Shown here: piece by piece, positions 525-52,532 of the stretch
How positions within the stretch are numbered: position 1 is the first letter of the stretch
How the letters are laid out: each line of letters starts with the position of its first letter
DNA from: Candidatus Nomurabacteria bacterium
GTDB lineage: Bacteria; Patescibacteriota; Minisyncoccia; Phycocordibacterales; UBA9973
Direction of reading: 5' to 3'
Assembly (NCBI GenBank): GCA_052035405.1
Contig: JBPOHQ010000004.1
Location: 70,687-134,686, forward strand
DNA length: 64,000 nt
Notes under the pieces: generated by a model
What the model was told of the DNA's origin: nothing
The model's input: the letters and a program-made list of their open reading frames with translations, nothing else
Database searches by the model: none
Made by a program: the position numbers and the translations under genes

Positions 525-1463
525 CTAAATGTGTGATAACTGACCTTCGTTCTCTTTGTGGTGACTATGCTCATGCTCTTCGTGTTCAGAATGATCTTGT
601 GCTGCTATCGTAAAATACACCGTCGTCAGTAAACTAAATATAAGTGCCTGAATAAGGCCAATAAACACTTCTAAAAATAGAAATGGTGTAGGCAATACAA
701 AAGCAAGTATCGCTGCCATAGAAGACAACAACACTTCCCCAGCAAAAATATTTCCAAACAAACGGAATGAAAGTGAAGCAATTTTTGCTAGTTCTCCAAT
801 AAATTCTATAATACCTACAAAGAACGAAATGGGTGCGACAACAAGCACACTTGGGTCTTTTCTAACTTTCGTAAAAATAGAACCAAGCTCTTGTAGCTTA
901 ACATATTTATTAATCGTTTTCCAGATTCCTAAAGTAATGATCCCAAATATGTTTGAACCAACCACCGCAACAATACCTAAAGTAAGTGTCATATTTATAT
1001 CAGCTGTACCACCCCGAAAGAGTGGCACAAAAATAGAATGACCTTCTTCCATCATATAAAAGCCCATTGAACCAATAAACGGCAAAATACCCAGCCAATT
1101 ATTTATTAAAATAAATATAAAAACACTAAATACTACCGGAAAAATCTTATTTGATATTTTCCGGTCGTTCGTAACTTGATCTACAAGTGACAACGCCCCA
1201 TCTAAAACTATTTCAAATACATGCTGAAGTTTTCCAGGTATCTTTTTTAACTTAAGACGAAGGATAAGAGAAAAAACAATAATAACAAGGACAGCAAGCC
1301 ATGAGGTTAACAGTGAGTTAGTGATTTGAAAGTCTCCAATCTTAAAAAGTGGCTCAGCATAAATTGTAACCTCGTGAACCGGTTGTTCGGATGTCTCGTG
1401 CCCCACTTCCGTAGTGCTTACATTTTCTATTTCTTGTATGTTATTTGTTGTCATTTTTTTCAA
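525..1463 (-). CDS. atpB: ATP synthase F0 subunit a
   Basis: 312 aa polytopic membrane protein with the subunit a signature SLSFRLFGNIFAGE; position in atp operon; unusual His/Glu-rich C-terminal tail. Confidence 0.88.
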   Translation of the reverse strand: MKKMTTNNIQEIENVSTTEVGHETSEQPVHEVTIYAEPLFKIGDFQITNSLLTSWLAVLVIIVFSLILRLKLKKIPGKLQHVFEIVLDGALSLVDQVTNDRKISNKIFPVVFSVFIFILINNWLGILPFIGSMGFYMMEEGHSIFVPLFRGGTADINMTLTLGIVAVVGSNIFGIITLGIWKTINKYVKLQELGSIFTKVRKDPSVLVVAPISFFVGIIEFIGELAKIASLSFRLFGNIFAGEVLLSSMAAILAFVLPTPFLFLEVFIGLIQALIFSLLTTVYFTIAAQDHSEHEEHEHSHHKENEGQLSHI

Positions 1464-1692
1464 TATCTTTTTTGTATTTTTTTATTTCCTTGTAAATTCC
1501 ATAACAGCTAATTATAAAACCCAAGAACATCAGAACAAAGAACAAGGTTTGATTTCCTCTAAGAAAGTATTTTGAAAACATTAATGCAACTAAAACGGGA
1601 AAAATTATCCAAGATGTTACTTTTGCATAAAAAAACATGGCAGGCTTCCACCATGGGTTATTTTCACTGAATTGGTTTTCTTCGTTTTTCAT
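1441..1692 (-). CDS. small two-TM membrane protein, possibly ATP synthase protein I (AtpI/AtpZ-like)
   Basis: 83 aa hydrophobic ORF immediately upstream of and overlapping atpB by 23 nt, the position usually occupied by atpI; no sequence signature beyond topology. Confidence 0.4.
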   Translation of the reverse strand: MKNEENQFSENNPWWKPAMFFYAKVTSWIIFPVLVALMFSKYFLRGNQTLFFVLMFLGFIISCYGIYKEIKKYKKDIEKNDNK

Positions 1693-1808
1693 AAAACAAA
1701 CCTTTGTACATGATACTGGTGGTCACACATAAAATTTTGCTAAATTTTTGTGCGACCCCGCCTCGGAACCGTCGTTCCTGCGGCTCTCACAAAGTACCCC
1801 GTACTTTG

Positions 1809-1880
1809 TGAGCGTGGATGGAATCGGACCATCGACCTCTGTCTTATCAGGACAGCGTTCTACCACTGAACTACACGCTC
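1809..1880 (-). tRNA. tRNA-Ile (anticodon GAU)
   Basis: Reverse complement GAGCGTG-TA-GTTCAGTGGTAGAAC-G-CTGTC-CTGATAA-GACAG-AGGTC-GATGG-TCCGATT-CCATC-CACGCTC-A folds as a canonical cloverleaf with a 7-bp acceptor stem; anticodon loop CTGATAA; no encoded CCA. Confidence 0.8.
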
Positions 1881-16961: not shown

Positions 16962-17053
16962 GGTGAGCGTTCAGCAGATAGAACTAAACGATTCCTTACC
17001 CCACAAGGTCGGTTTGGTGGATTTTAGTAAAGTAAAACGACCCTTCTCGTGCG
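16962..17053 (+). ncRNA. element X copy 1: conserved ~91-nt structured intergenic element (unknown ncRNA family; strand uncertain)
   Basis: Shares a 5' block GGTGAGCGTTCAGCAGATAGAAC and a 3' block ACGACCCTTCTCGTGCG with copies at 39291 and 40373; internal hairpin CCTT-N8-AAGG covaries between copies. Confidence 0.55.
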
Positions 17054-17740
17054 TCAATTATCTAAATCAATCTTGTCTAGAGAAATTTGTTCTTTAAAAG
17101 TTTTTCCTGTTTCTTTTTCCGCAATGTATGCCATTAGTAGAAGTAAACCTGTGGTATATCCAAAAATTAAAGCGTATAGAGATTCATCCAGTTTCTGTTT
17201 AAGTCCTCCATCGTCATTATATACATTAGCTTCAACTCGATACTTCTTATCTTTCACATATATAAAAACATTTGCCGTCTTATGTACCGAAGAATCTCTT
17301 AAATTTCTTAGGTCAGAAAAAATTTTATTATCAAGATGTTTTCTAAATTTTTCTTCAATTTCTGGATATTCACCTGATTGAACCTTCTTAAGAAATTTAT
17401 TAAAACTTTTTTGCTGGACACCATATTGATCTTTGAGAAAAATGAGTAGGTAGTCATAAATAGATCTTGCTAGAGTTAAATAGCTTTCAAATAACCCTGC
17501 CAATATCTCATGGTTTACATCATGTTTCGCATCATTTATTTCTTTTTCACCAGCTTTGTATAAAATGTCCCCAATTATTCCAGTCCTAAAAAGACGAAAA
17601 AAGATTTGTGATGAAATTTGACCTTTCTTTTTATGGAGTACATTTTTAACAAAATAATTCTGAGATAATGCATGAAAAGCATATGAGGATGGTTTATCAA
17701 AACTAAATTTAAAATATTTATTTGTAAGCTCTAATGACAT
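17054..17740 (-). CDS. hypothetical protein
   Basis: 228 aa, no recognised motif; bracketed by element X copy 1 and tRNA-Glu. Confidence 0.5.
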   Translation of the reverse strand: MSLELTNKYFKFSFDKPSSYAFHALSQNYFVKNVLHKKKGQISSQIFFRLFRTGIIGDILYKAGEKEINDAKHDVNHEILAGLFESYLTLARSIYDYLLIFLKDQYGVQQKSFNKFLKKVQSGEYPEIEEKFRKHLDNKIFSDLRNLRDSSVHKTANVFIYVKDKKYRVEANVYNDDGGLKQKLDESLYALIFGYTTGLLLLMAYIAEKETGKTFKEQISLDKIDLDN

Positions 17741-17785
17741 ATACCAATATCATATACAGCACCTTCTCGTGCGCGCTGTTGACGG

Positions 17786-17857
17786 TGACCTCACGGAGAA
17801 TCGAACTCCGATTAGCGGATTGAGAACCCGCTGTCCTAACCGTTAGACGATGAGGCC
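17786..17857 (-). tRNA. tRNA-Glu (anticodon CUC)
   Basis: Reverse complement GGCCTCA-TC-GTCTAACGGTTAGGAC-A-GCGGG-TTCTCAA-TCCGC-TAAT-CGGAG-TTCGATT-CTCCG-TGAGGTC-A(CC) folds as a cloverleaf. Confidence 0.75.
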
Positions 17858-38257: not shown

Positions 38258-38848
38258 TTATTGCTCAATAACGACCTTTAATTTAGGCCATTTTTCTAAC
38301 CATTTTTTAGTTTTTACTCTGTCCCAAAAAAGATCAAGATTTTTATATTGTGGAGCGGTGGGTCTGATGATTAAATTCACTAAGTCGTCTATACCGTGGG
38401 GAGCTATTATCCTCGGTTCACCATTTTCAAGAGTTACGGCCACACACGTCGGCGTCTCTACCCATTCAGAAAGTCCTTCTTCTGCATTTCGGTAATGCTC
38501 CGTCCTGTCATGCTTAGTATGCATATATGCTTGATTTCTTATCTCCCATTCGAGCCCCAGGAGCCCGGACATCTTTTCTGAAAGCTTTTTATCTGCCTCT
38601 TTATCAGGATTATTCATATCAAAATATATTAAATCGATATCTCTCGTATCAGCAACTTCCCTTTTTATATCATGAAGATGATCCCAAACTTTATTCCTCA
38701 AAAATCCTGCACCAATCATCCAATCAGGCAAGTTTAACTTCTCCGCTTCATGAAGCACGTCCATCATCCATTTATCACTTTTTACTAAGTTTATTATTTC
38801 TTCTGTTTTCATTGGTGTGTTTAAATTAGTCTTCCCAAACCTCCACAA
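38258..38848 (-). CDS. nucleotidyltransferase-fold protein (pol-beta superfamily)
   Basis: GAGF...DIDL(IYFD) arrangement matching the GS...DxD nucleotidyltransferase signature; 196 aa; overlaps queD by 23 nt. Confidence 0.5.
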   Translation of the reverse strand: MWRFGKTNLNTPMKTEEIINLVKSDKWMMDVLHEAEKLNLPDWMIGAGFLRNKVWDHLHDIKREVADTRDIDLIYFDMNNPDKEADKKLSEKMSGLLGLEWEIRNQAYMHTKHDRTEHYRNAEEGLSEWVETPTCVAVTLENGEPRIIAPHGIDDLVNLIIRPTAPQYKNLDLFWDRVKTKKWLEKWPKLKVVIEQ

Positions 38849-39191
38849 AAGATTTTGCTGTTTCGTGAAGTTTTATTTTTACAACATTAACACCCTTTGT
38901 CTTAATCCTATTAAAGCACTCAGTTGCTAGATTTTCTGCTGTTGTAGTAAAAGGTAGAATATCATTCAGATATTGATGATCCCATTGAGAAATAATCTCA
39001 CTTTCAACAATTTTTGACAGATCTGAAAAATCCATAACCATACCCTCTTTGCTACCGCTTTCAATTATTTTACCTGAAACAGTCACCTCGAGCACGTATG
39101 AATGACCATGTAAATTTTTACACTTTCCATCATGATTCGGCAAACTATGAGCTGCTTCAAATTTAAATTGTTTTGTAATCGAGGTATTCAT
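38826..39191 (-). CDS. queD: 6-carboxy-5,6,7,8-tetrahydropterin synthase / 6-pyruvoyl-tetrahydropterin synthase family
   Basis: 121 aa; catalytic Cys-x3-HGH (CKNLHGHSY) and C-terminal His/Glu. Confidence 0.8.
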   Translation of the reverse strand: MNTSITKQFKFEAAHSLPNHDGKCKNLHGHSYVLEVTVSGKIIESGSKEGMVMDFSDLSKIVESEIISQWDHQYLNDILPFTTTAENLATECFNRIKTKGVNVVKIKLHETAKSFVEVWED

Positions 39192-39234
39192 AAGTTAAAT
39201 ATACTATTAGTGTTAGTTTATTGCTAGTGACATT

Positions 39235-39293
39235 CTTCACAAAAACGCAAAAGACTGGAGCAGTCCAGTCTTTTCTTTATAAGCGTTTTTATG
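39235..39293. terminator. ~58-nt nested-palindrome terminator module, copy A (AAAAACGC-AAAAGACTGGAGCAGTCCAGTCTTTT-CTTTATAA-GCGTTTTT)
   Basis: Near-identical (one extra A) to 42478-42540; inner 10-bp stem followed by T-run, outer 8-bp inverted repeat. Confidence 0.65.
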
Positions 39294-39381
39294 AGCGTTC
39301 AGCAGATAGAACCAAACAATTCGTTACCCTGTAAGGCTATTTTAGCTAGTTTTAGATAATTTTATCGACCCTTCTCGAGCG
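39291..39381 (+). ncRNA. element X copy 2
   Basis: TGAGCGTTCAGCAGATAGAAC...TTACCCTGTAAGG...CGACCCTTCTCGAGCG; same spacing as copies 1 and 3. Confidence 0.55.
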
Positions 39382-39409
39382 ATTGTTAAAAATACTAAAT
39401 TTCTGATGA

Positions 39410-40303
39410 CTATGTTTTGATAATTGTACCAATAAATGAACTTTCTGTATCGAATGATTTGTGAGTATATTGAGCGAGTTCAGACTCAAGTGATTCCTTG
39501 GTGTATCGTAATGACTGAAACACAATCAATTTGTCACCCGACGTAATACCAATGCTTTCTAGTGCTGAATTGGTATTAATCACTAAACATGACACTCGAA
39601 ATCCGTCGTCTGCAATTCTTGGTGAGATATCAGTGAATGGATCAAGTCCGATAAGTCGAACCTTGTCATCTACTAGTCGAACAGCATCTTCTTGATAAAC
39701 TTTTTGCAATTCAACCATATCTACACGATCACGCATCTGCGCATTTATAAACACAAAACCGTTTGTTCCCACAATGTCAGTAAGAAGCTTTAATATTTCT
39801 TGTGGTGCGTAATTTGAAAACGTAAGACCAAGAGAAACAAACCGAGGAACTGTGGATTCTCCAAGAACCTCAGGTAATTCTTCAAATGAGGCTTTCACTT
39901 TTCGTACAGGAATCCCTTGTGGTGTTGCGTGTGAATCTGCCATTTCAAGAAAGTGATCACTGATATCTACAGGAACATATATAAAAGATTTACCTTGTTT
40001 TTTAAGTTCATCAAACAGGAACTGCTCCTTGTGTTCTGTGCCTGGACCAAGATCAATGTATTCAAAATTATTTGGGAGTATATCTGCAATATTTTTTGCA
40101 ATTAGTTGTAGATATTCATGTTCTGGTTTTGTGACTAGTTTGAAATACGAAGTATCTTCTTCTTGTAACTGTTCGTAAACTGCATCGCCCGAACCAATGT
40201 AAATAAGAAGGGAATCCGAAAAATCCCAAATCCCATTATCTAGTTTCTTGAGAGATTTGAAGGCTCGATCCTTAAACCATTCTTGGTTGTATTTTCCATC
40301 CAT
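39410..40303 (-). CDS. SAM-dependent methyltransferase of the EgtD / Methyltransf_33 (histidine N-alpha-methyltransferase-like) family
   Basis: Collinear with EgtD: YIDLGPGTEHK (cf. ELGSGTSEK), YVPVDIS, SLGLTFSNY (cf. FLGSTIGNL); 297 aa. Confidence 0.55.
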   Translation of the reverse strand: MDGKYNQEWFKDRAFKSLKKLDNGIWDFSDSLLIYIGSGDAVYEQLQEEDTSYFKLVTKPEHEYLQLIAKNIADILPNNFEYIDLGPGTEHKEQFLFDELKKQGKSFIYVPVDISDHFLEMADSHATPQGIPVRKVKASFEELPEVLGESTVPRFVSLGLTFSNYAPQEILKLLTDIVGTNGFVFINAQMRDRVDMVELQKVYQEDAVRLVDDKVRLIGLDPFTDISPRIADDGFRVSCLVINTNSALESIGITSGDKLIVFQSLRYTKESLESELAQYTHKSFDTESSFIGTIIKT

Positions 40304-40316
40304 GTCTCAATTGTAT

Positions 40317-40347
40317 CACAAAAACAGCTCCCTTCGGAGCTGTTTTT
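40317..40347. terminator. rho-independent terminator (AAAAACAGCTCC-cttc-GGAGCTGTTTTT)
   Basis: Perfect 11-bp stem with flanking A/T runs between element X copy 3 and the methyltransferase start. Confidence 0.65.
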
Positions 40348-40372
40348 GTATGCTTCTCGTGCTAGCCCGAAA

Positions 40373-40463
40373 TGGTGAGCGTTCAGCAGATAGAACCTTT
40401 TGATTCATTGCCCAGTAAGGTCATTTACTACTTTTCATGATATCAGAACGACCCTTATTGTGC
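40373..40463 (+). ncRNA. element X copy 3
   Basis: GGTGAGCGTTCAGCAGATAGAAC...CATTGCCCAGTAAGG...ACGACCCTTATTGTGCG; preceded by an extra CTTCTCGTGC motif at 40351. Confidence 0.55.
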
Positions 40464-40478
40464 GACCTAGTAAAAAAG

Positions 40479-41516
40479 CTACGAAATTTCTTTTGCATGC
40501 TTCAGATATTCTAGGAAGGCAATCTTCATCTCCTTATTACTACCACTCTTGTTTATATCCGAACGGCTTCCTGACATAATTGTATTCACATCAGGCAGGT
40601 TCCAGGCTGTCTGGTCACTCAATATCCACCTATCATGGGTATCTCTAATAAGAGTGCTGTCGATTTTGAGCCATTCTAAACTAATACCCTTACTAGATAG
40701 CTCTTTTTTTAGATCCCGGTACTCCTTCAAGACCTTTGGAGTTATATGAACATCAAGCCCTAAGGAAAGAATTTTAATATCTTTGATTTTATTCGCATCA
40801 GCAGTCTCCCATATGTATTCAAGGCCAGCAGAAGTGAAATGCTTATCGAGCCAATAGATATTACCTTTACAGCCTGACAATACCCGTTTAAGCCACATCT
40901 TATTTCCATACGGACGTGTTGGATCAATAAATATACTTGATGGTATCTCCGTTTCTTCTGCTGTCTGATTGAAGAGAACTTGAATTGTCTTGAATTTCTT
41001 TGAATATGTAATCAAGCCGACCGAGTTCATCATCAACAGAAGATTTGTAAGAGGACTCTCATCCATATAACACCAGAAACCCCTACTCTTCAAAATCGAC
41101 AAGGCGTTCTCTTTTTTTGGATTTTTTACTCCGTAAAGCAACTGAAGTATTGCTTCACATGGAGGAAATTGGAGTAACCCTTTCTTGAGTGCTTCGTTAG
41201 CCCTATCTACCTCAGAACGAATATACCTACCGTGATAATAAGAAGTTCCAAGTTCAGTAAGACTGTCTGAGGTAATCTCCATAAATCCTAGTGACCTTAG
41301 AAAATCAATGTCATCGTTGGATCCATCGGAATCTTCATCTTCAGCAATCGCCTTCAATATTTTTTCGTAAGAACTCCAAGTTCTCTGAGGAAGAAGATGC
41401 TCTTCGTTGTTATTCTCCTGTAGATTCTGTGTCTCCATTTTCATTTGAACCATTGGTTTTAGAGTACTTGTCACTGAACCCCGTAACGGAAGAAATAAGT
41501 GCCTTGTAGTCATCAA
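40479..41516 (-). CDS. hypothetical protein (unknown family), gene A of an overlapping pair
   Basis: 345 aa, no recognisable catalytic signature; annotated start overlaps upstream gene by 107 nt (a later Met would cut this to ~29 nt). Confidence 0.5.
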   Translation of the reverse strand: MMTTRHLFLPLRGSVTSTLKPMVQMKMETQNLQENNNEEHLLPQRTWSSYEKILKAIAEDEDSDGSNDDIDFLRSLGFMEITSDSLTELGTSYYHGRYIRSEVDRANEALKKGLLQFPPCEAILQLLYGVKNPKKENALSILKSRGFWCYMDESPLTNLLLMMNSVGLITYSKKFKTIQVLFNQTAEETEIPSSIFIDPTRPYGNKMWLKRVLSGCKGNIYWLDKHFTSAGLEYIWETADANKIKDIKILSLGLDVHITPKVLKEYRDLKKELSSKGISLEWLKIDSTLIRDTHDRWILSDQTAWNLPDVNTIMSGSRSDINKSGSNKEMKIAFLEYLKHAKEIS

Positions 41517-42141
41517 GAAGACCTATATTCGTAAGAATATCTTTTGGAAGAATCAAACTGATACCACTTTTCCCAAATGGGATTACGGTGTGTTCTGAGT
41601 CTGTCGCAATAGTAGTTTTAGAACCTGGTCTGGTAATCTGCGCTTTTGCAACTGGCTTTCTTGTGGGTGTATTTGATGGAATTCTTGGAGTCTTTATCTG
41701 AGCGGAAACCTCTCGAAGACCTGCTTGTTCACAAAGATACACAAATGCTGGTACGGCACCCGTAGCAACTCGTGAACTTATCTTGTATACATGCATGAAA
41801 TCGTTATGCAGTTCATCCTTGCCCATGGTACATGCCTCAGGAACAACTTTGAGGAGGGCCTCATATGAGGTTTTTACCATCTCAACAAGTGCCTGTGCTT
41901 TTGCATCACCCTTATATCCCATTTTTGCCATCAAGGATGTACTATTGGAGTCGGCATCTATCAATCCAAGGAATCTCAAGGAGGCAACAGCCAAATTTGC
42001 ATCACTGCTGGAGAATGAGTGGGTAAGGAAATAATCAGGATTCAATGATGTCATACTTCTTGCACTTATCAGAGAAAGTACTTTCTCGAGTCTAGTAGCA
42101 CTCAAATACGCTGGTGACAATGGTCTTTTTTCTTCAGTCAT
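41410..42141 (-). CDS. hypothetical protein (unknown family), gene B of an overlapping pair
   Basis: 243 aa; structured N-terminal ~150 aa, Pro/Thr/Lys-rich linker, C-terminal ~60 aa; no known motif. Confidence 0.5.
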   Translation of the reverse strand: MTEEKRPLSPAYLSATRLEKVLSLISARSMTSLNPDYFLTHSFSSSDANLAVASLRFLGLIDADSNSTSLMAKMGYKGDAKAQALVEMVKTSYEALLKVVPEACTMGKDELHNDFMHVYKISSRVATGAVPAFVYLCEQAGLREVSAQIKTPRIPSNTPTRKPVAKAQITRPGSKTTIATDSEHTVIPFGKSGISLILPKDILTNIGLLDDYKALISSVTGFSDKYSKTNGSNENGDTESTGE

Positions 42142-42477
42142 AGTTTTATGTGAATTAATTTATAATGATATTATAAATCTATCATACCCATACAACTAAA
42201 TCAAGTTTTTATTAAAATAATAAAAGCCTTGTAGATAAGCATTTTTAGTGAGAAAATTTTTTATAATATAAAATTATCACTCAGTCAATATATAAATAAT
42301 GTCCATTAAACTCTAAATCCCATCTACTTGAAGCGTGTACTCAAATTAATTATAATATCCATTTTATTTAAACACTCGTGCGAGCTGTTGATGGTGAGCC
42401 ACAATAATTTGTTCGCCGTCGCTCACAAATTTTCCAGCCCCGGACTCAGCTGTTTTTCTTACTAGAAAAACATGCTT

Positions 42478-42540
42478 CCGTCTTCACAAAAACGCAAAAA
42501 GACTGGAGCAGTCCAGTCTTTTCTTTATAAGCGTTTTTGT
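42478..42540. terminator. ~58-nt nested-palindrome terminator module, copy B, abutting the tRNA-Glu(UUC) 3' end
   Basis: CGTCTTCACAAAAACGCAAAAAGACTGGAGCAGTCCAGTCTTTTCTTTATAAGCGTTTTTGTG; see copy A. Confidence 0.65.
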
Positions 42541-42611
42541 GACCCTACAGAGAATCGAACTCTGATTACCGCCTTGAAAAGGCGATGTCCTAACCGTTAG
42601 ACGATAGGGCC
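42540..42611 (-). tRNA. tRNA-Glu (anticodon UUC)
   Basis: Reverse complement GGCCCTA-TC-GTCTAACGGTTAGGAC-A-TCGCC-TTTTCAA-GGCGG-TAAT-CAGAG-TTCGATT-CTCTG-TAGGGTC-A; near-paralog of the Glu-CUC gene at 17786. Confidence 0.75.
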
Positions 42612-42758
42612 ATATGGGACATAATATAATATTTATGTTCTAATTGCAAAGGGTTTGATCTACAATATAACATTTTAACGTTTGCCTTTATATAAATAAA
42701 AAAGTAGGATACAAAAGAACAAAACCGAGCCTAGCGGTAAAACTAAGCATGATACAGT

Positions 42759-43289
42759 ATGAGACAGCTCTTTTTTATAGTCCTATTACTTGGGACTTCT
42801 AGATCATCACTCGCACAGCTGTCCCTAGAACAGATTGTGCACAACTACGAGACAGTACATGATACAATTCTTCCAGTATGTTTTTTGGAAAAAATTACAG
42901 GAATCTATAATTTTGTCGGAAGCCCTAAGATAGGCATAGACAGCAAAGGGTCAAGATTTTTCCCTGGAAAAATCTTCATTAGAGATAGTTCTGCTGTTTT
43001 TTCTCTTATAGAAGAAATGGCCCATGCATATCAATGGGAACAAAAAGGTGGTAAATTCAGAATGACTATAGCCCTAACAGGCTTGTCATTTAAAGCACTC
43101 TGGCGTACGGTCTTTTCTAAAAAACCAAAAAATTCTCGGAGTAAAAGAGGTACCGTTTGGCAACACTACACTGCATTCGCATACGAACCTATGCGAAGAA
43201 ATTTCTGGGCCTATGAATTTGAGGCTCATCATGTGATCTCTCCAGACATGCTTCAATATTTAAGTGAACCATGCGAGACAAAAAAATAA
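42759..43289 (+). CDS. hypothetical secreted protein
   Basis: 176 aa with N-terminal signal peptide (LFFIVLLLGTSRSSLA); no known domain. Confidence 0.45.
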   Translation: MRQLFFIVLLLGTSRSSLAQLSLEQIVHNYETVHDTILPVCFLEKITGIYNFVGSPKIGIDSKGSRFFPGKIFIRDSSAVFSLIEEMAHAYQWEQKGGKFRMTIALTGLSFKALWRTVFSKKPKNSRSKRGTVWQHYTAFAYEPMRRNFWAYEFEAHHVISPDMLQYLSEPCETKK

Positions 43290-49019: not shown

Positions 49020-49484
49020 ATGGAAAATAAAAAAAGAAGTTTTTTTGAAAGAATCACAGGAAGTATGAGAGCAGACGATGATATAGAAGTAGAACACCAG
49101 GCAGTAGAGCCAGATAAAAAGAATACCAATGCTTGGATGGAAGAGGAAAACGAAGAAGCAGAACTCACAGTAGATGTATTTCAGACATCTACTGATATAT
49201 TCCTACAGACTATGGTAGCTGGAGTAAAACCTGAGGACCTAGACTTAACTATAGGACGAGATATGATAACTATTAAAGGAAAAAGGGAGAATGATCAATC
49301 CGTACCTGATGAGAATTACTTTACCAAAGAACTCTACTGGGGCAAGTTCTCTCGAACCATTCTCCTCCCCCAAGAAGTAGAACCAGATCAGTCAGATGCA
49401 ACAGAAAAACATGGGTTGCTTACCATTAAGCTTCAAAAAGTAGATAAAGAAAAGAAAGCTAATGTAAAAGTAAAATCTATATAG
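49020..49484 (+). CDS. Hsp20/alpha-crystallin family small heat-shock protein
   Basis: 154 aa; alpha-crystallin domain core (DLTIGRDMITIKGKRE...FSRTILLPQEV...GLLTIKLQK). Confidence 0.8.
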   Translation: MENKKRSFFERITGSMRADDDIEVEHQAVEPDKKNTNAWMEEENEEAELTVDVFQTSTDIFLQTMVAGVKPEDLDLTIGRDMITIKGKRENDQSVPDENYFTKELYWGKFSRTILLPQEVEPDQSDATEKHGLLTIKLQKVDKEKKANVKVKSI

Positions 49485-49492
49485 TAAAAAAT

Positions 49493-49518
49493 AAAAAACC
49501 TCCACATGGAGGTTTTTT
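49493..49518. terminator. bidirectional rho-independent terminator (AAAAAACCTCCA-ca-TGGAGGTTTTTT)
   Basis: 10-bp stem with A6/T6 flanks between hsp20 (+) and tRNA-Phe (-). Confidence 0.75.
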
Positions 49519-49524
49519 ATTTTT

Positions 49525-49600
49525 TGGTGCCGAGACCCAGGGTCGAACTGGGGACCTATCCCTCTTCAGGGGAGCGCTCTACCAACTGAGCTATCTCGGC
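49525..49600 (-). tRNA. tRNA-Phe (anticodon GAA), CCA encoded
   Basis: Reverse complement GCCGAGA-TA-GCTCAGTTGGTAGAGC-G-CTCCC-CTGAAGA-GGGAT-AGGTC-CCCAG-TTCGACC-CTGGG-TCTCGGC-A-CCA. Confidence 0.8.
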
Positions 49601-52403: not shown

Positions 52404-52475
52404 GCCCTCATAGTTCAATGGATAGAACAGTTCCGTCCTAAGGAATAGATCCCCGTTCGATTCGGAGTGAGGGCA
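52404..52475 (+). tRNA. tRNA-Arg (anticodon CCU)
   Basis: GCCCTCA-TA-GTTCAATGGATAGAAC-A-GTTCC-GTCCTAA-GGAAT-AGAT-CCCCG-TTCGATT-CGGAG-TGAGGGC-A; one mismatch in T-stem. Confidence 0.65.
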
Positions 52476-52519
52476 CAATATAAAAAATCTTCCAAAAAGG
52501 AAGATTTTTTATATTGTGC
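52473..52519. terminator. long perfect palindrome/terminator (GCACAATATAAAAAATCTTCC-aaaaa-GGAAGATTTTTTATATTGTGC) overlapping the tRNA-Arg 3' end
   Basis: 21-bp perfect stem read directly. Confidence 0.7.
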
Positions 52520-52532
52520 TTTATAGCTTTAA

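Follow-up and report, generated by a model that had tools for sequence, protein, structure and literature searches.

We analyzed a 64,000-nucleotide stretch, here called the window, of a Candidatus Nomurabacteria genome (contig JBPOHQ010000004.1, positions 70,687 to 134,686 of the forward strand), in which a palindromic module occurs twice. The two copies lie at either end of a 3.2-kb block between a tRNA-Glu(UUC) gene and queD, among other recurring elements that we refer to as element X, Y-core RNA, and the 10-nt G motif GCACGAGAAG. Since all the neighboring features are on the minus strand, this is the strand to read, and it is the functional strand of the module. Read in this direction, the locus is composed as follows.

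tRNA-Glu(UUC), 42539..42611, minus strand; a promoter-like site lies just upstream (42650-42621).
Module copy 2, the canonical copy, 42481..42542, minus strand; outer helix CACAAAAACGC/GCGUUUUUGUG, starting inside the last bases of tRNA-Glu.
Y-core, 42394..42484, minus strand; adjoins copy 2, has two stem-loop domains, and ends ...GUGGCUCAC (99.9 bits, E 3.7e-23).
12-nt linker (CAUCAACAGCUC) and degenerate G motif (GCACGAGUG), 42373..42393, minus strand; after the Y-core, left boundary of the cargo.
Cargo 1, 40479..42141, minus strand; DUF5343 protein at 41410-42141 (PADLOC candidate PDC-M34A) and 345-aa protein at 40479-41516, with no family match.
Element X copy 3, 40375..40463, minus strand; starts with the G-motif variant GCACAAUAAG and ends GUUCUAUCUGCUGAACGCUCAC.
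Linker and G motif (40353-40374) and an unrelated hairpin (40318-40349) with the outer arms of the module, ACAAAAAC/GUUUUUGU, 40318..40374, minus strand.
Cargo 2, 39410..40303, minus strand; Methyltransf_33 family protein, 297 aa.
Element X copy 2, 39291..39380, minus strand; starts GCUCGAGAAG and ends ...GAACGCUCAU.
Module copy 1, 39234..39294, minus strand; starts at UCAU (the last bases of X copy 2) and ends GAAGA.
Putative Y-core remnant, 39227..39238, minus strand; GAAGA + AUGUCAC, which we read as the opening 5 nt fused to the final ~7 nt, followed by the queD leader.
queD (PTPS family), 38826..39191, minus strand; the first conserved gene past the variable block.

The two module copies (61 and 62 nt) share 60 identical positions and differ by one substitution (A at 39291, G at 42539) and one extra A in copy 2, with an uninterrupted identity of 42 nt (39249-39290 and 42497-42538). 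With 3 mismatches allowed, a 42-nt match was found in none of 100 dinucleotide shuffles, and the window itself holds only these two; a third copy was not detected in the 64 kb when as many as 4 substitutions were tolerated in the 22-nt apical hairpin. The duplication reported by the initial annotation is thus genuine, and the single inserted A that it described is accompanied by one substitution. On the minus strand the layout is UCA(C/U)-AAAAACGC-UUAUAAAG-AAAAGACUGGA-CUGC-UCCAGUCUUUU(U)-GCGUUUUU-GUG-AAGA: an outer helix of 11 bp, CACAAAAACGC/GCGUUUUUGUG (CAU... in copy 1), then a bulge confined to one side, and on top of it the apical stem, 11-12 bp long and closed by a tetraloop. In copy 2, the bulge is UUAUAAAG, on the 5' side, the apical stem AAAAGACUGGA/UCCAGUCUUUU carries the loop CUGC, and the GAAGA that follows constitutes the first bases of the Y-core. 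The palindrome is therefore nested, as had been proposed, with an apical stem longer than the 10 bp and an outer helix longer than the 8 bp originally described. Folding energies on the minus strand are -27.8 (copy 1) and -30.8 kcal/mol (copy 2), equaled by no shuffle, and those on the plus strand are -24.6 and -29.3 kcal/mol, with z-scores of -5.6 to -6.8 across folds (about -5.6 to -5.8 for the whole element on the minus strand). The surroundings, which had been called otherwise non-repetitive, proved not to be so: besides the module, the window contains three X copies, two Y-core RNAs plus the remnant, and several copies of GCACGAGAAG.

The exact 22-nt apical hairpin is present in 89 stretches of public metagenome contigs (the public contig stretches compared with the window are labeled L001, L002, and so on); since only exact 22-mers were searched, this number says nothing on how universal the 22-mer is. 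Patescibacteria that carry the element can be recognized by the sequence AAGACUGGACUGCUCCAGUCUU. Hainich groundwater and anaerobic digesters are among the sampled sources, having provided L023, L031, L033, L078, and the Ga0172378-Ga0172381 contigs. Neither the module 22-mer nor the X 20-mer matched any of the viral contigs. In 46 instances the hairpin directly follows the 3' end of a tRNA, namely, 34 tRNA-Glu (UUC or CUC), 6 Arg, 2 Lys, 2 Trp, 1 Leu, and 1 Ala, and its outer helix begins with the bases right after the discriminator (...GGGUCAC followed by AAAAGCG...). The loop reads CUGC in the sense of the tRNA in 43 of these 46. On the 3' side, the hairpin ends one base before the start of the Y-core, and without any spacer there follows GAAGACGGAAGCAUG and then a hairpin with an AGCA loop, the same sequence that is found after copy 2. 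The neighbors at these loci are housekeeping genes encoding MurF, FtsI, ValRS, and TsaD, and since the MurF orthologues are only 42-58% identical to each other, the host lineages must be far apart.

The sequence of the outer helix varies among these lineages and yet stays paired, for instance CACAAAAGCG/CGCUUUUGUG, CCGCAUAG/CUAUGCGG, CGCAAAUGAG/CUCAUUUGCG, and CACCGAUAC/GUAUCGGUG. Among 72 distinct sequences, all 14 positions are paired in 48, with several Watson-Crick types per position. Near-copies of the apical stem carry compensatory changes as well: AAGGCUGGA...UCCAGCCUU in L042, CAGACUGGA-CUAC-UCCAGUCUG in L060, and CAGACUAG...CUAGUCUG in L002. About a fifth of the family members have a fully paired stem without internal loop. 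Three loci with a Y-core were found independently, via X or QueD (L002, L008, and L110), and the upstream side is visible in two of them: L002 has a close variant of the hairpin before its Y-core, L008 has another stem with the same AAA-CUGC-UUU apex, and the L110 stretch begins inside its Y-core, which places the upstream side outside the view. Across the ultra-small Patescibacteria (candidate phyla radiation [CPR]) there is a conserved hairpin between a tRNA, usually tRNA-Glu, and a Y-core, and the module is the form that it takes in this genome. The adjacency to tRNA-Glu and X noted at first recurs elsewhere, in the 34 tRNA-Glu instances and in X-module junctions of L022, L046, and L056; many divergent copies without linkage to either were not what the search returned. 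The suggestion that the module is more than an ordinary one-off terminator agrees with its deep conservation and its fixed loop and orientation, and the companion suggestion of a ribozyme recognition site found no evidence, as no Rfam ribozyme family matched at E<=10.

The partner of the hairpin is the Y-core, a structured RNA of about 70-110 nt (~90 nt in the copy-2 unit) that we found at about 45 loci after a tRNA and a hairpin. The consensus fold of 30 aligned post-hairpin sequences has 19 pairs, 16 of which show compensatory changes, and the covariance model built from this alignment detected two copies in the window, one after module copy 2 and one in a tRNA-Ile unit (1719-1786). Scans with Rfam 15, at gathering threshold for the whole window and at E<=10 for 38700-42800 and for positions 760-1160 of L020, assigned no family to the module, to X, or to the Y-core; only tRNAs exceeded the threshold, and the additional hits were a tRNA matching mascRNA and noise. 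In the literature, the literal sequences were not found, and the topics of CPR structured-RNA motifs and of integrons and attC sites in Patescibacteria gave no relevant match. Judged against Rfam 15 and the literature that could be searched, the Y-core represents a structured RNA family not described before. Longer versions in L020, L021, L085, and L081 end with UCUCUGUAGGGUCAC, which equals the last 15 nt of the upstream tRNA-Glu, and are followed by a second hairpin. The Y-core also stands alone with convergent genes after it (L095 and L044), lies 39 nt from a HEPN gene (L110), or forms tandem arrays (L055 and L030/L092). In the tRNA-less L066 and L062, a sigma-70-like promoter (TTGAAA-17-TATAAT, 11/12, and TGGAAA-17-TATAAT, 10/12, respectively) stops 6-7 nt short of the hairpin base, and the hairpin would then be the first thing transcribed.

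Other identities considered for these RNAs were discarded. RNase P, signal recognition particle, 6S, and transfer-messenger RNA have no covariance-model support for the Y-core, which moreover occurs in multiple or tandem copies; a Met-Phe-Phe leader peptide at its start is contradicted by a nonconserved AUG; and a tRNA-like cloverleaf in either X or Y-core was not called by ARAGORN, nor could we see by eye an acceptor-stem partner for the 3' ends.

In its anatomy, the module resembles an intrinsic terminator. A terminator consensus scan flagged both copies on the minus strand, with 11-12 pairs; its plus-strand output was limited to a weak version of 5 pairs. The minus strand presents an A-run, a G+C-containing stem-loop with a 7-bp core (GACUGGA/UCCAGUC) extended to 11-12 bp, the CUGC loop, and, straight after the stem, the U-run UUUU(U)GCGUUUUUGUG. 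At the positions right after the 22-mer, a U paired with A or G is found in 71, 72, and 56 of the 72 distinct family members, and since U was not imposed by the search, this conservation is not a search artifact. What does not fit a terminator is the end of a transcription unit with nothing cotranscribed downstream, because at most loci the Y-core adjoins the hairpin without a spacer. The tRNA-Arg and tRNA-Phe of the window have their own long hairpins at the discriminator or 1-2 bases after it, and a hairpin at or just past the discriminator seems to be a general design of tRNA 3' ends in this genome. These two hairpins, at 49480-49530 (tRNA-Phe) and 52470-52520 (tRNA-Arg), are perfectly paired, A/U rich, and about 18 and 23 bp long. 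Likewise, X copies of other genomes carry unrelated hairpins at the position of the module. The G-U content, which we tried as an indicator of the strand, was uninformative, since the helices are nearly pure Watson-Crick and the mean difference between sense and antisense is -0.8 kcal/mol.

Copy 2 overlaps the last bases of tRNA-Glu(UUC) and copy 1 those of X copy 2. Copy 2 belongs to a canonical unit of tRNA-Glu(UUC), module, and Y-core, while the X-then-module order of copy 1 is seen also in L022, L046, and L056. In L110, whose QueD is 98% identical to that of the window, there is no module before queD, and the last 20 nt of a Y-core (CCAAAUUAUUGUCGCUCAC) are found at the same place. Given this 3' fragment and the GAAGA + AUGUCAC after the outer helix of copy 1, we read 39227-39238 as an internally deleted Y-core. 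Copy 1, which ends about 50 nt from queD, is best read from its sequence as what remains of a second module-Y unit, namely, its hairpin, nearly all of the Y having been lost by deletion. The two share the outer helix and the bulge, the parts that differ between lineages, and copies 1 and 2 have therefore been recently copied or homogenized, by recent duplication, gene conversion, or recombination. The initial annotation had proposed a recent private duplication; the recent copying or homogenization stands, whereas the hairpin itself is a deeply conserved family element, whose Y-core partner had been overlooked. Two contigs of the Logan assembly of SRR34217540, L001 and L109, are the sole public ones with the exact methyltransferase and QueD of the window, which shows that the same strain is present in that sample. 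The exact-protein look-ups gave short contigs from one sample, and L109 (QueD) starts inside the module and L001 (methyltransferase) ends inside it, as expected where an assembler meets a repeat.

The 3.2-kb block between the copies contains, in minus-strand order, the Y-core, linker + GCACGAGUG, the DUF5343 gene, the 345-aa gene, X3, linker + GCACGAGAAG, the unrelated hairpin (which ends 14 nt before the methyltransferase start codon at 40303), the Methyltransf_33 gene, and X2. It differs or is absent among relatives. L110 has at this position a Y-core, a HEPN gene, a truncated X, a trypsin-like gene, and a terminator; L112 (QueD 80%) has tRNA-Glu, linker and motif, a different methyltransferase, and queD; L114 to L116 (QueD 82%) have tRNA-Glu(CUC), a degenerate linker/motif, about 170 nt, and queD, with no module, Y, or X. 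The copies bracket a swap-prone block of accessory and defense-type genes, and the proposal that the module delimits a region of variable presence is borne out by L110, L112, and L114. We also considered whether the same HEPN cassette occupies two slots, one in the window and one in L110, and rejected this because the proteins are not detectably similar.

All three X copies (~90 nt, minus strand) end in the invariant GUUCUAUCUGCUGAACGCUCA, and the 20-nt 3' block of the element, GUUCUAUCUGCUGAACGCUC, was found at 18 genome loci (L002 to L019), nearly all of them in Patescibacteria metagenome-assembled genomes labeled Saccharibacteria, Nomurabacteria, or Parcubacteria. X has three conserved sequence blocks and neither a consensus secondary structure nor covariation, so that it may be read as DNA or be bound by protein rather than folded. 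A riboswitch with the module as its expression platform was rejected, since the downstream genes are heterogeneous, some X copies have no downstream gene, and there is no consensus structure. After tRNA-Glu, Y, or X there recurs, with great regularity, a unit made of ..UCAC, a 12-nt linker (often ..GUGCUA or ..CAGCUA), and GCACGAGAAG, and the same 10-nt motif opens every X. This unit lies at 17763-17784, 40353-40374, and 42373-42393 of the window and in L003, L004, L008, L013 to L018, L112, and L114. Measured from the left motif, the 3' block of the following X lies about 670-2950 nt away, a span in which roughly 60 nt belongs to X itself, and the boundaries of the cargo coincide with the linker and GCACGAGAAG motifs, not with the module. 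In the relative L013, the same frame carries two cargo genes, one of them for a homologue of Shedu SduA (E 3.8e-67). Elsewhere in the window, the following features repeat parts of these arrangements.

tRNA-Glu(CUC) locus parallel to that of copy 2, 17763..17857, minus strand; tRNA-Glu(CUC) at 17784-17857, then 12-nt linker and G motif at 17763-17784, without the module.
Cargo of the parallel locus, 16963..17740, minus strand; HEPN (Cthe_2314-like) gene at 17054-17740, then GCACGAGAAGG-X1.
Element X copy 1, 16963-17052, minus strand; follows the HEPN gene.
tRNA-Ile unit of the same design with another hairpin, 1719..1880, minus strand; tRNA-Ile at 1808-1880, hairpin CACAAAGUAC-GGG-GUACUUUGUG at 1788-1810, short Y-core at 1719-1786.

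The short Y-core of the tRNA-Ile unit (41.2 bits, E 2.6e-08) ends 27 nt before the next ORF (open reading frame), which leaves no room for a promoter and suggests that the tRNA promoter drives the genes downstream, with transcription passing through the hairpin. In this region (1454-1880, minus strand), a small ORF comes after the Y-core and, further on, there is a 309-aa ORF that by eye resembles an ATP-synthase a-subunit. The last 8 nt of X (ACGCUCAC; e.g., 39291-39298) equal the 3' end of tRNA-Ile (..CCACGCUCAC, 1808-1815); long Y RNAs end like tRNA-Glu, and X, Y, and tRNA units all end in ..UCAC. Beside X in L011 and L019, we noticed a large serine recombinase (546 and 440 aa, respectively) with the N-terminal motif YVRVSSAEQ, a common 426-aa protein that looks ParB-like by eye, and a small protein of 124-137 aa; in L011 the recombinase ORF overlaps the 3' block of X on the opposite strand. 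In these two loci, a mobile element may use X as its attachment site.

Two E. coli arrangements are of help in interpreting the module. tRNA-linked repeats (TLRs) lie just downstream of tRNA or rRNA genes, with 18-19 nt (bp) at their 3' end identical to the 3' end of the gene, and the small RNAs rrA/B/F, encoded between two terminators, T1 and T2, are produced when transcription continues past T1, at which 87% of transcripts stop (PMC8144298). By analogy, we favor, with about even confidence, a role of the module as a leaky terminator or processing hairpin that doubles as the 5' stem of a tRNA-linked small RNA. It would act as the first, T1-like leaky terminator or processing stem of a unit made of tRNA, hairpin, and small RNA, the covarying outer helix serving to lengthen the stem. 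Most transcripts would end or be cut at the hairpin, which would set the 3' trailer of the tRNA, and transcripts that read through, or that start from a promoter at the base of tRNA-less copies, would carry the hairpin as the 5'-terminal stem of Y. In that position, the stem could shield the 5' end or be the binding site of a conserved partner, and the conserved apex suggests a specific one. The terminator anatomy, on one side, and the deep conservation, the gapless Y-core, and the adjacent promoters, on the other, are reconciled by this arrangement. The likely role of the hairpin is a variant of a known design (stable-RNA gene, leaky terminator, small RNA).

Several points weigh against the role of leaky terminator and 5' stem. 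Termination and read-through, as well as cleavage or processing and stabilization, are all steps that we infer, here from the observed sequence, structure, conservation, covariation, linkage, and block variability. G-U pairs are rare (35/944) and the folding energies of sense and antisense are similar; folding of the palindrome would be just as feasible on the opposite strand or at the DNA level. The promoter scan yielded no promoter-like site between copy 1 and queD, so that efficient termination at copy 1 would leave the expression of queD unexplained, and a terminator as the first element of a promoter-driven transcript, as in L062 and L066, is odd. The Y-core of the window has no tRNA-like 3' end, since it ends GUGGCUCAC and shares only UCAC with tRNA-Glu. 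Finally, the 22/22 identity is partly a product of the exact-match search; in independently found loci, the apical stem differs (L008) or varies (L002).

For the frame as a whole, we tentatively consider that module, Y-core, X, and the sequence made of CAC, the 12-nt linker, and GCACGAGAAG form an undescribed gene-cassette platform of Patescibacteria anchored at tRNA-Glu, a proposal with clearly less than an even chance. Promoter-less accessory and defense genes (those for Shedu SduA, HEPN, DUF5343/PDC-M34A, and methyltransferases) would be inserted at the 10-nt motif, each insertion being bounded by tRNA-like ends (tRNA-Glu, Y-core, and X) that finish in ..UCAC, with the module capping or separating units. 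The function would be comparable to that of integrons, with different parts and a recombinase provided in trans.

Among the alternatives for the module, an ordinary bidirectional intrinsic terminator, copied once and ending only the transcripts of tRNA-Glu and X2, is in our view unlikely. It would account for the canonical terminator anatomy of the minus strand and its weaker plus-strand counterpart, for the unrelated hairpins that take the same place at other tRNAs of the window and at other X copies, and for the divergence of the apical stems in independently found loci, and the likeness elsewhere would be due to ancestry and to the exact-match search. However, it has to face 89 exact 22-mers in lineages with 42-58% MurF identity, a loop and orientation kept in 43/46 tRNA-linked instances, and compensatory changes in the apical stem. 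Nor does it explain a Y-core that adjoins the hairpin without a gap on its 3' side, leaving no room for a promoter, or the promoters directly ahead of the hairpin in L062 and L066.

In the metagenomes Ga0210049, Ga0210051, and Ga0210057 (L027, L050, and L062), one perfectly palindromic module occurs with three pairs of flanks (tRNA-Glu and Y, tRNA-Glu and a promoter region, and a promoter region and Y) and with its 4-nt loop flipped, a pattern that points to rearrangement or strain variation at the hairpin. The module could be viewed as an att-like site acting at the DNA level, the two copies being direct repeats left after a 3.2-kb segment (Y-core to X2) recombined into a tRNA-Glu-module-queD site, by site-specific or homologous recombination between conserved hairpins on mobile cassettes. 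We regard this as improbable, although the support for it is real. In line with it are the block that differs in L110 at a QueD identity of 98% and is missing in L114/L115, the X-module-Y junctions of L022 and L046, as would derive from a circular intermediate, a chimeric second module in L020 (5' half as in the first module, 3' half different), the alternative flanks and flipped loop just described, the almost purely Watson-Crick pairing, and the large serine recombinase adjoining X in L011 and L019. On the other hand, cassette boundaries fall at the 12-nt linker and GCACGAGAAG instead of the module, the "empty" relatives lack any module, most module loci are stable housekeeping neighborhoods (MurF, FtsI, ValRS, and TsaD), and the kept orientation of the loop argues for a strand-specific role; moreover, no recombinase was recognized among the ORFs of the window, only 10 of which were scanned against Pfam.

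Similarly improbable is an RNase III-type processing or 5'-protecting stem with little or no terminator activity within a long tRNA-driven transcript (tRNA-hairpin-Y-genes-X-hairpin-genes), which the duplex of about 22 bp, often with a one-sided internal loop, and the short gaps suggestive of cotranscription (14 nt from the X3 hairpin to the methyltransferase, 27 nt from Y-core to ORF, and about 50 nt, without promoter, from copy 1 to queD) would allow, but which is at odds with the many Y-cores before convergent genes, with no downstream message to protect, has no need for a conserved U-run, and leaves the sequence conservation of the apical stem unexplained.

Patescibacteria are a large, mostly uncultivated branch with tiny genomes, and hardly anything is known about their noncoding RNAs or about how they gain and lose genes. 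The present analysis yields a hairpin that has kept almost every base in lineages of deep divergence, a new tRNA-tied structured RNA family with clear covariation, and a frame that recurs after tRNA-Glu and in which the defense-type genes between identical short motifs differ from one close relative to another. The most unusual part is this cassette frame, which would represent a new way for Patescibacteria to exchange genes if it proved to be dedicated to the capture of cassettes. The 22-mer, the Y-core model, and the X 21-mer are defined queries for genomes and transcriptomes.

As judged by sequence, the hairpin is unrelated to any described family, and its comparison with known systems relies on organization and structure. 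Like intrinsic terminators, it combines an A-run and a U-run with a G+C-containing stem-loop and is located where a tRNA gene ends; such terminators are, however, normally not conserved base for base over such distances, have no fixed loop or orientation, and do not adjoin a conserved RNA without a gap. Integron attC sites are likewise imperfect palindromes of ~60 nt that end promoter-less accessory genes set in one orientation, with a content between repeats that varies among close relatives. In contrast to attC, there are no R''/R' cores (RYYYAAC/GTTRRRY), the base of the palindrome reading CACAAAA...UUUUGUG; the apex is conserved and the base variable, the reverse of attC; and the boundaries lie at the 10-nt direct repeat GCACGAGAAG. 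An integron integrase was not recognized among the ORFs of the window, 10 of which were scanned with Pfam. Repetitive extragenic palindromes and bacterial interspersed mosaic elements (REP/BIME) are also repeated, palindromic, extragenic, and terminator-like, whereas the module has two copies in 64 kb, is tied to the ends of tRNA, X, and Y, and is conserved between distant lineages, not within a species. RNase III signals of the phage T7 R1.1 type and stabilizer hairpins of the ompA-leader type have upper and lower stems with an asymmetric internal loop and lie between polycistronic units. The module shares these traits, as far as their general features go, and its hairpin likewise opens the downstream RNA at the extreme 5' end; unlike them, about a fifth of the family has a fully paired stem without internal loop.

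The parallel with TLRs and rrnB T1-rrB-T2 has its differences: there is no sequence homology (no Rfam match at E<=10, RtT included), the phylum is another one, the first hairpin is here conserved in sequence, the Y-core of the window has no tRNA-like 3' end, and the units flank gene cassettes. In both cases, however, a conserved small RNA lies downstream of a stable-RNA gene in the same orientation, with a hairpin between them to be read through, and in L020, L021, L085, and L081 the Y ends with 15 nt of the upstream tRNA followed by a second hairpin. Even if the frame is not a cassette-capture system, the unit of tRNA, hairpin, and small RNA would still extend the poorly understood TLR design of E. 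coli to a distant phylum.

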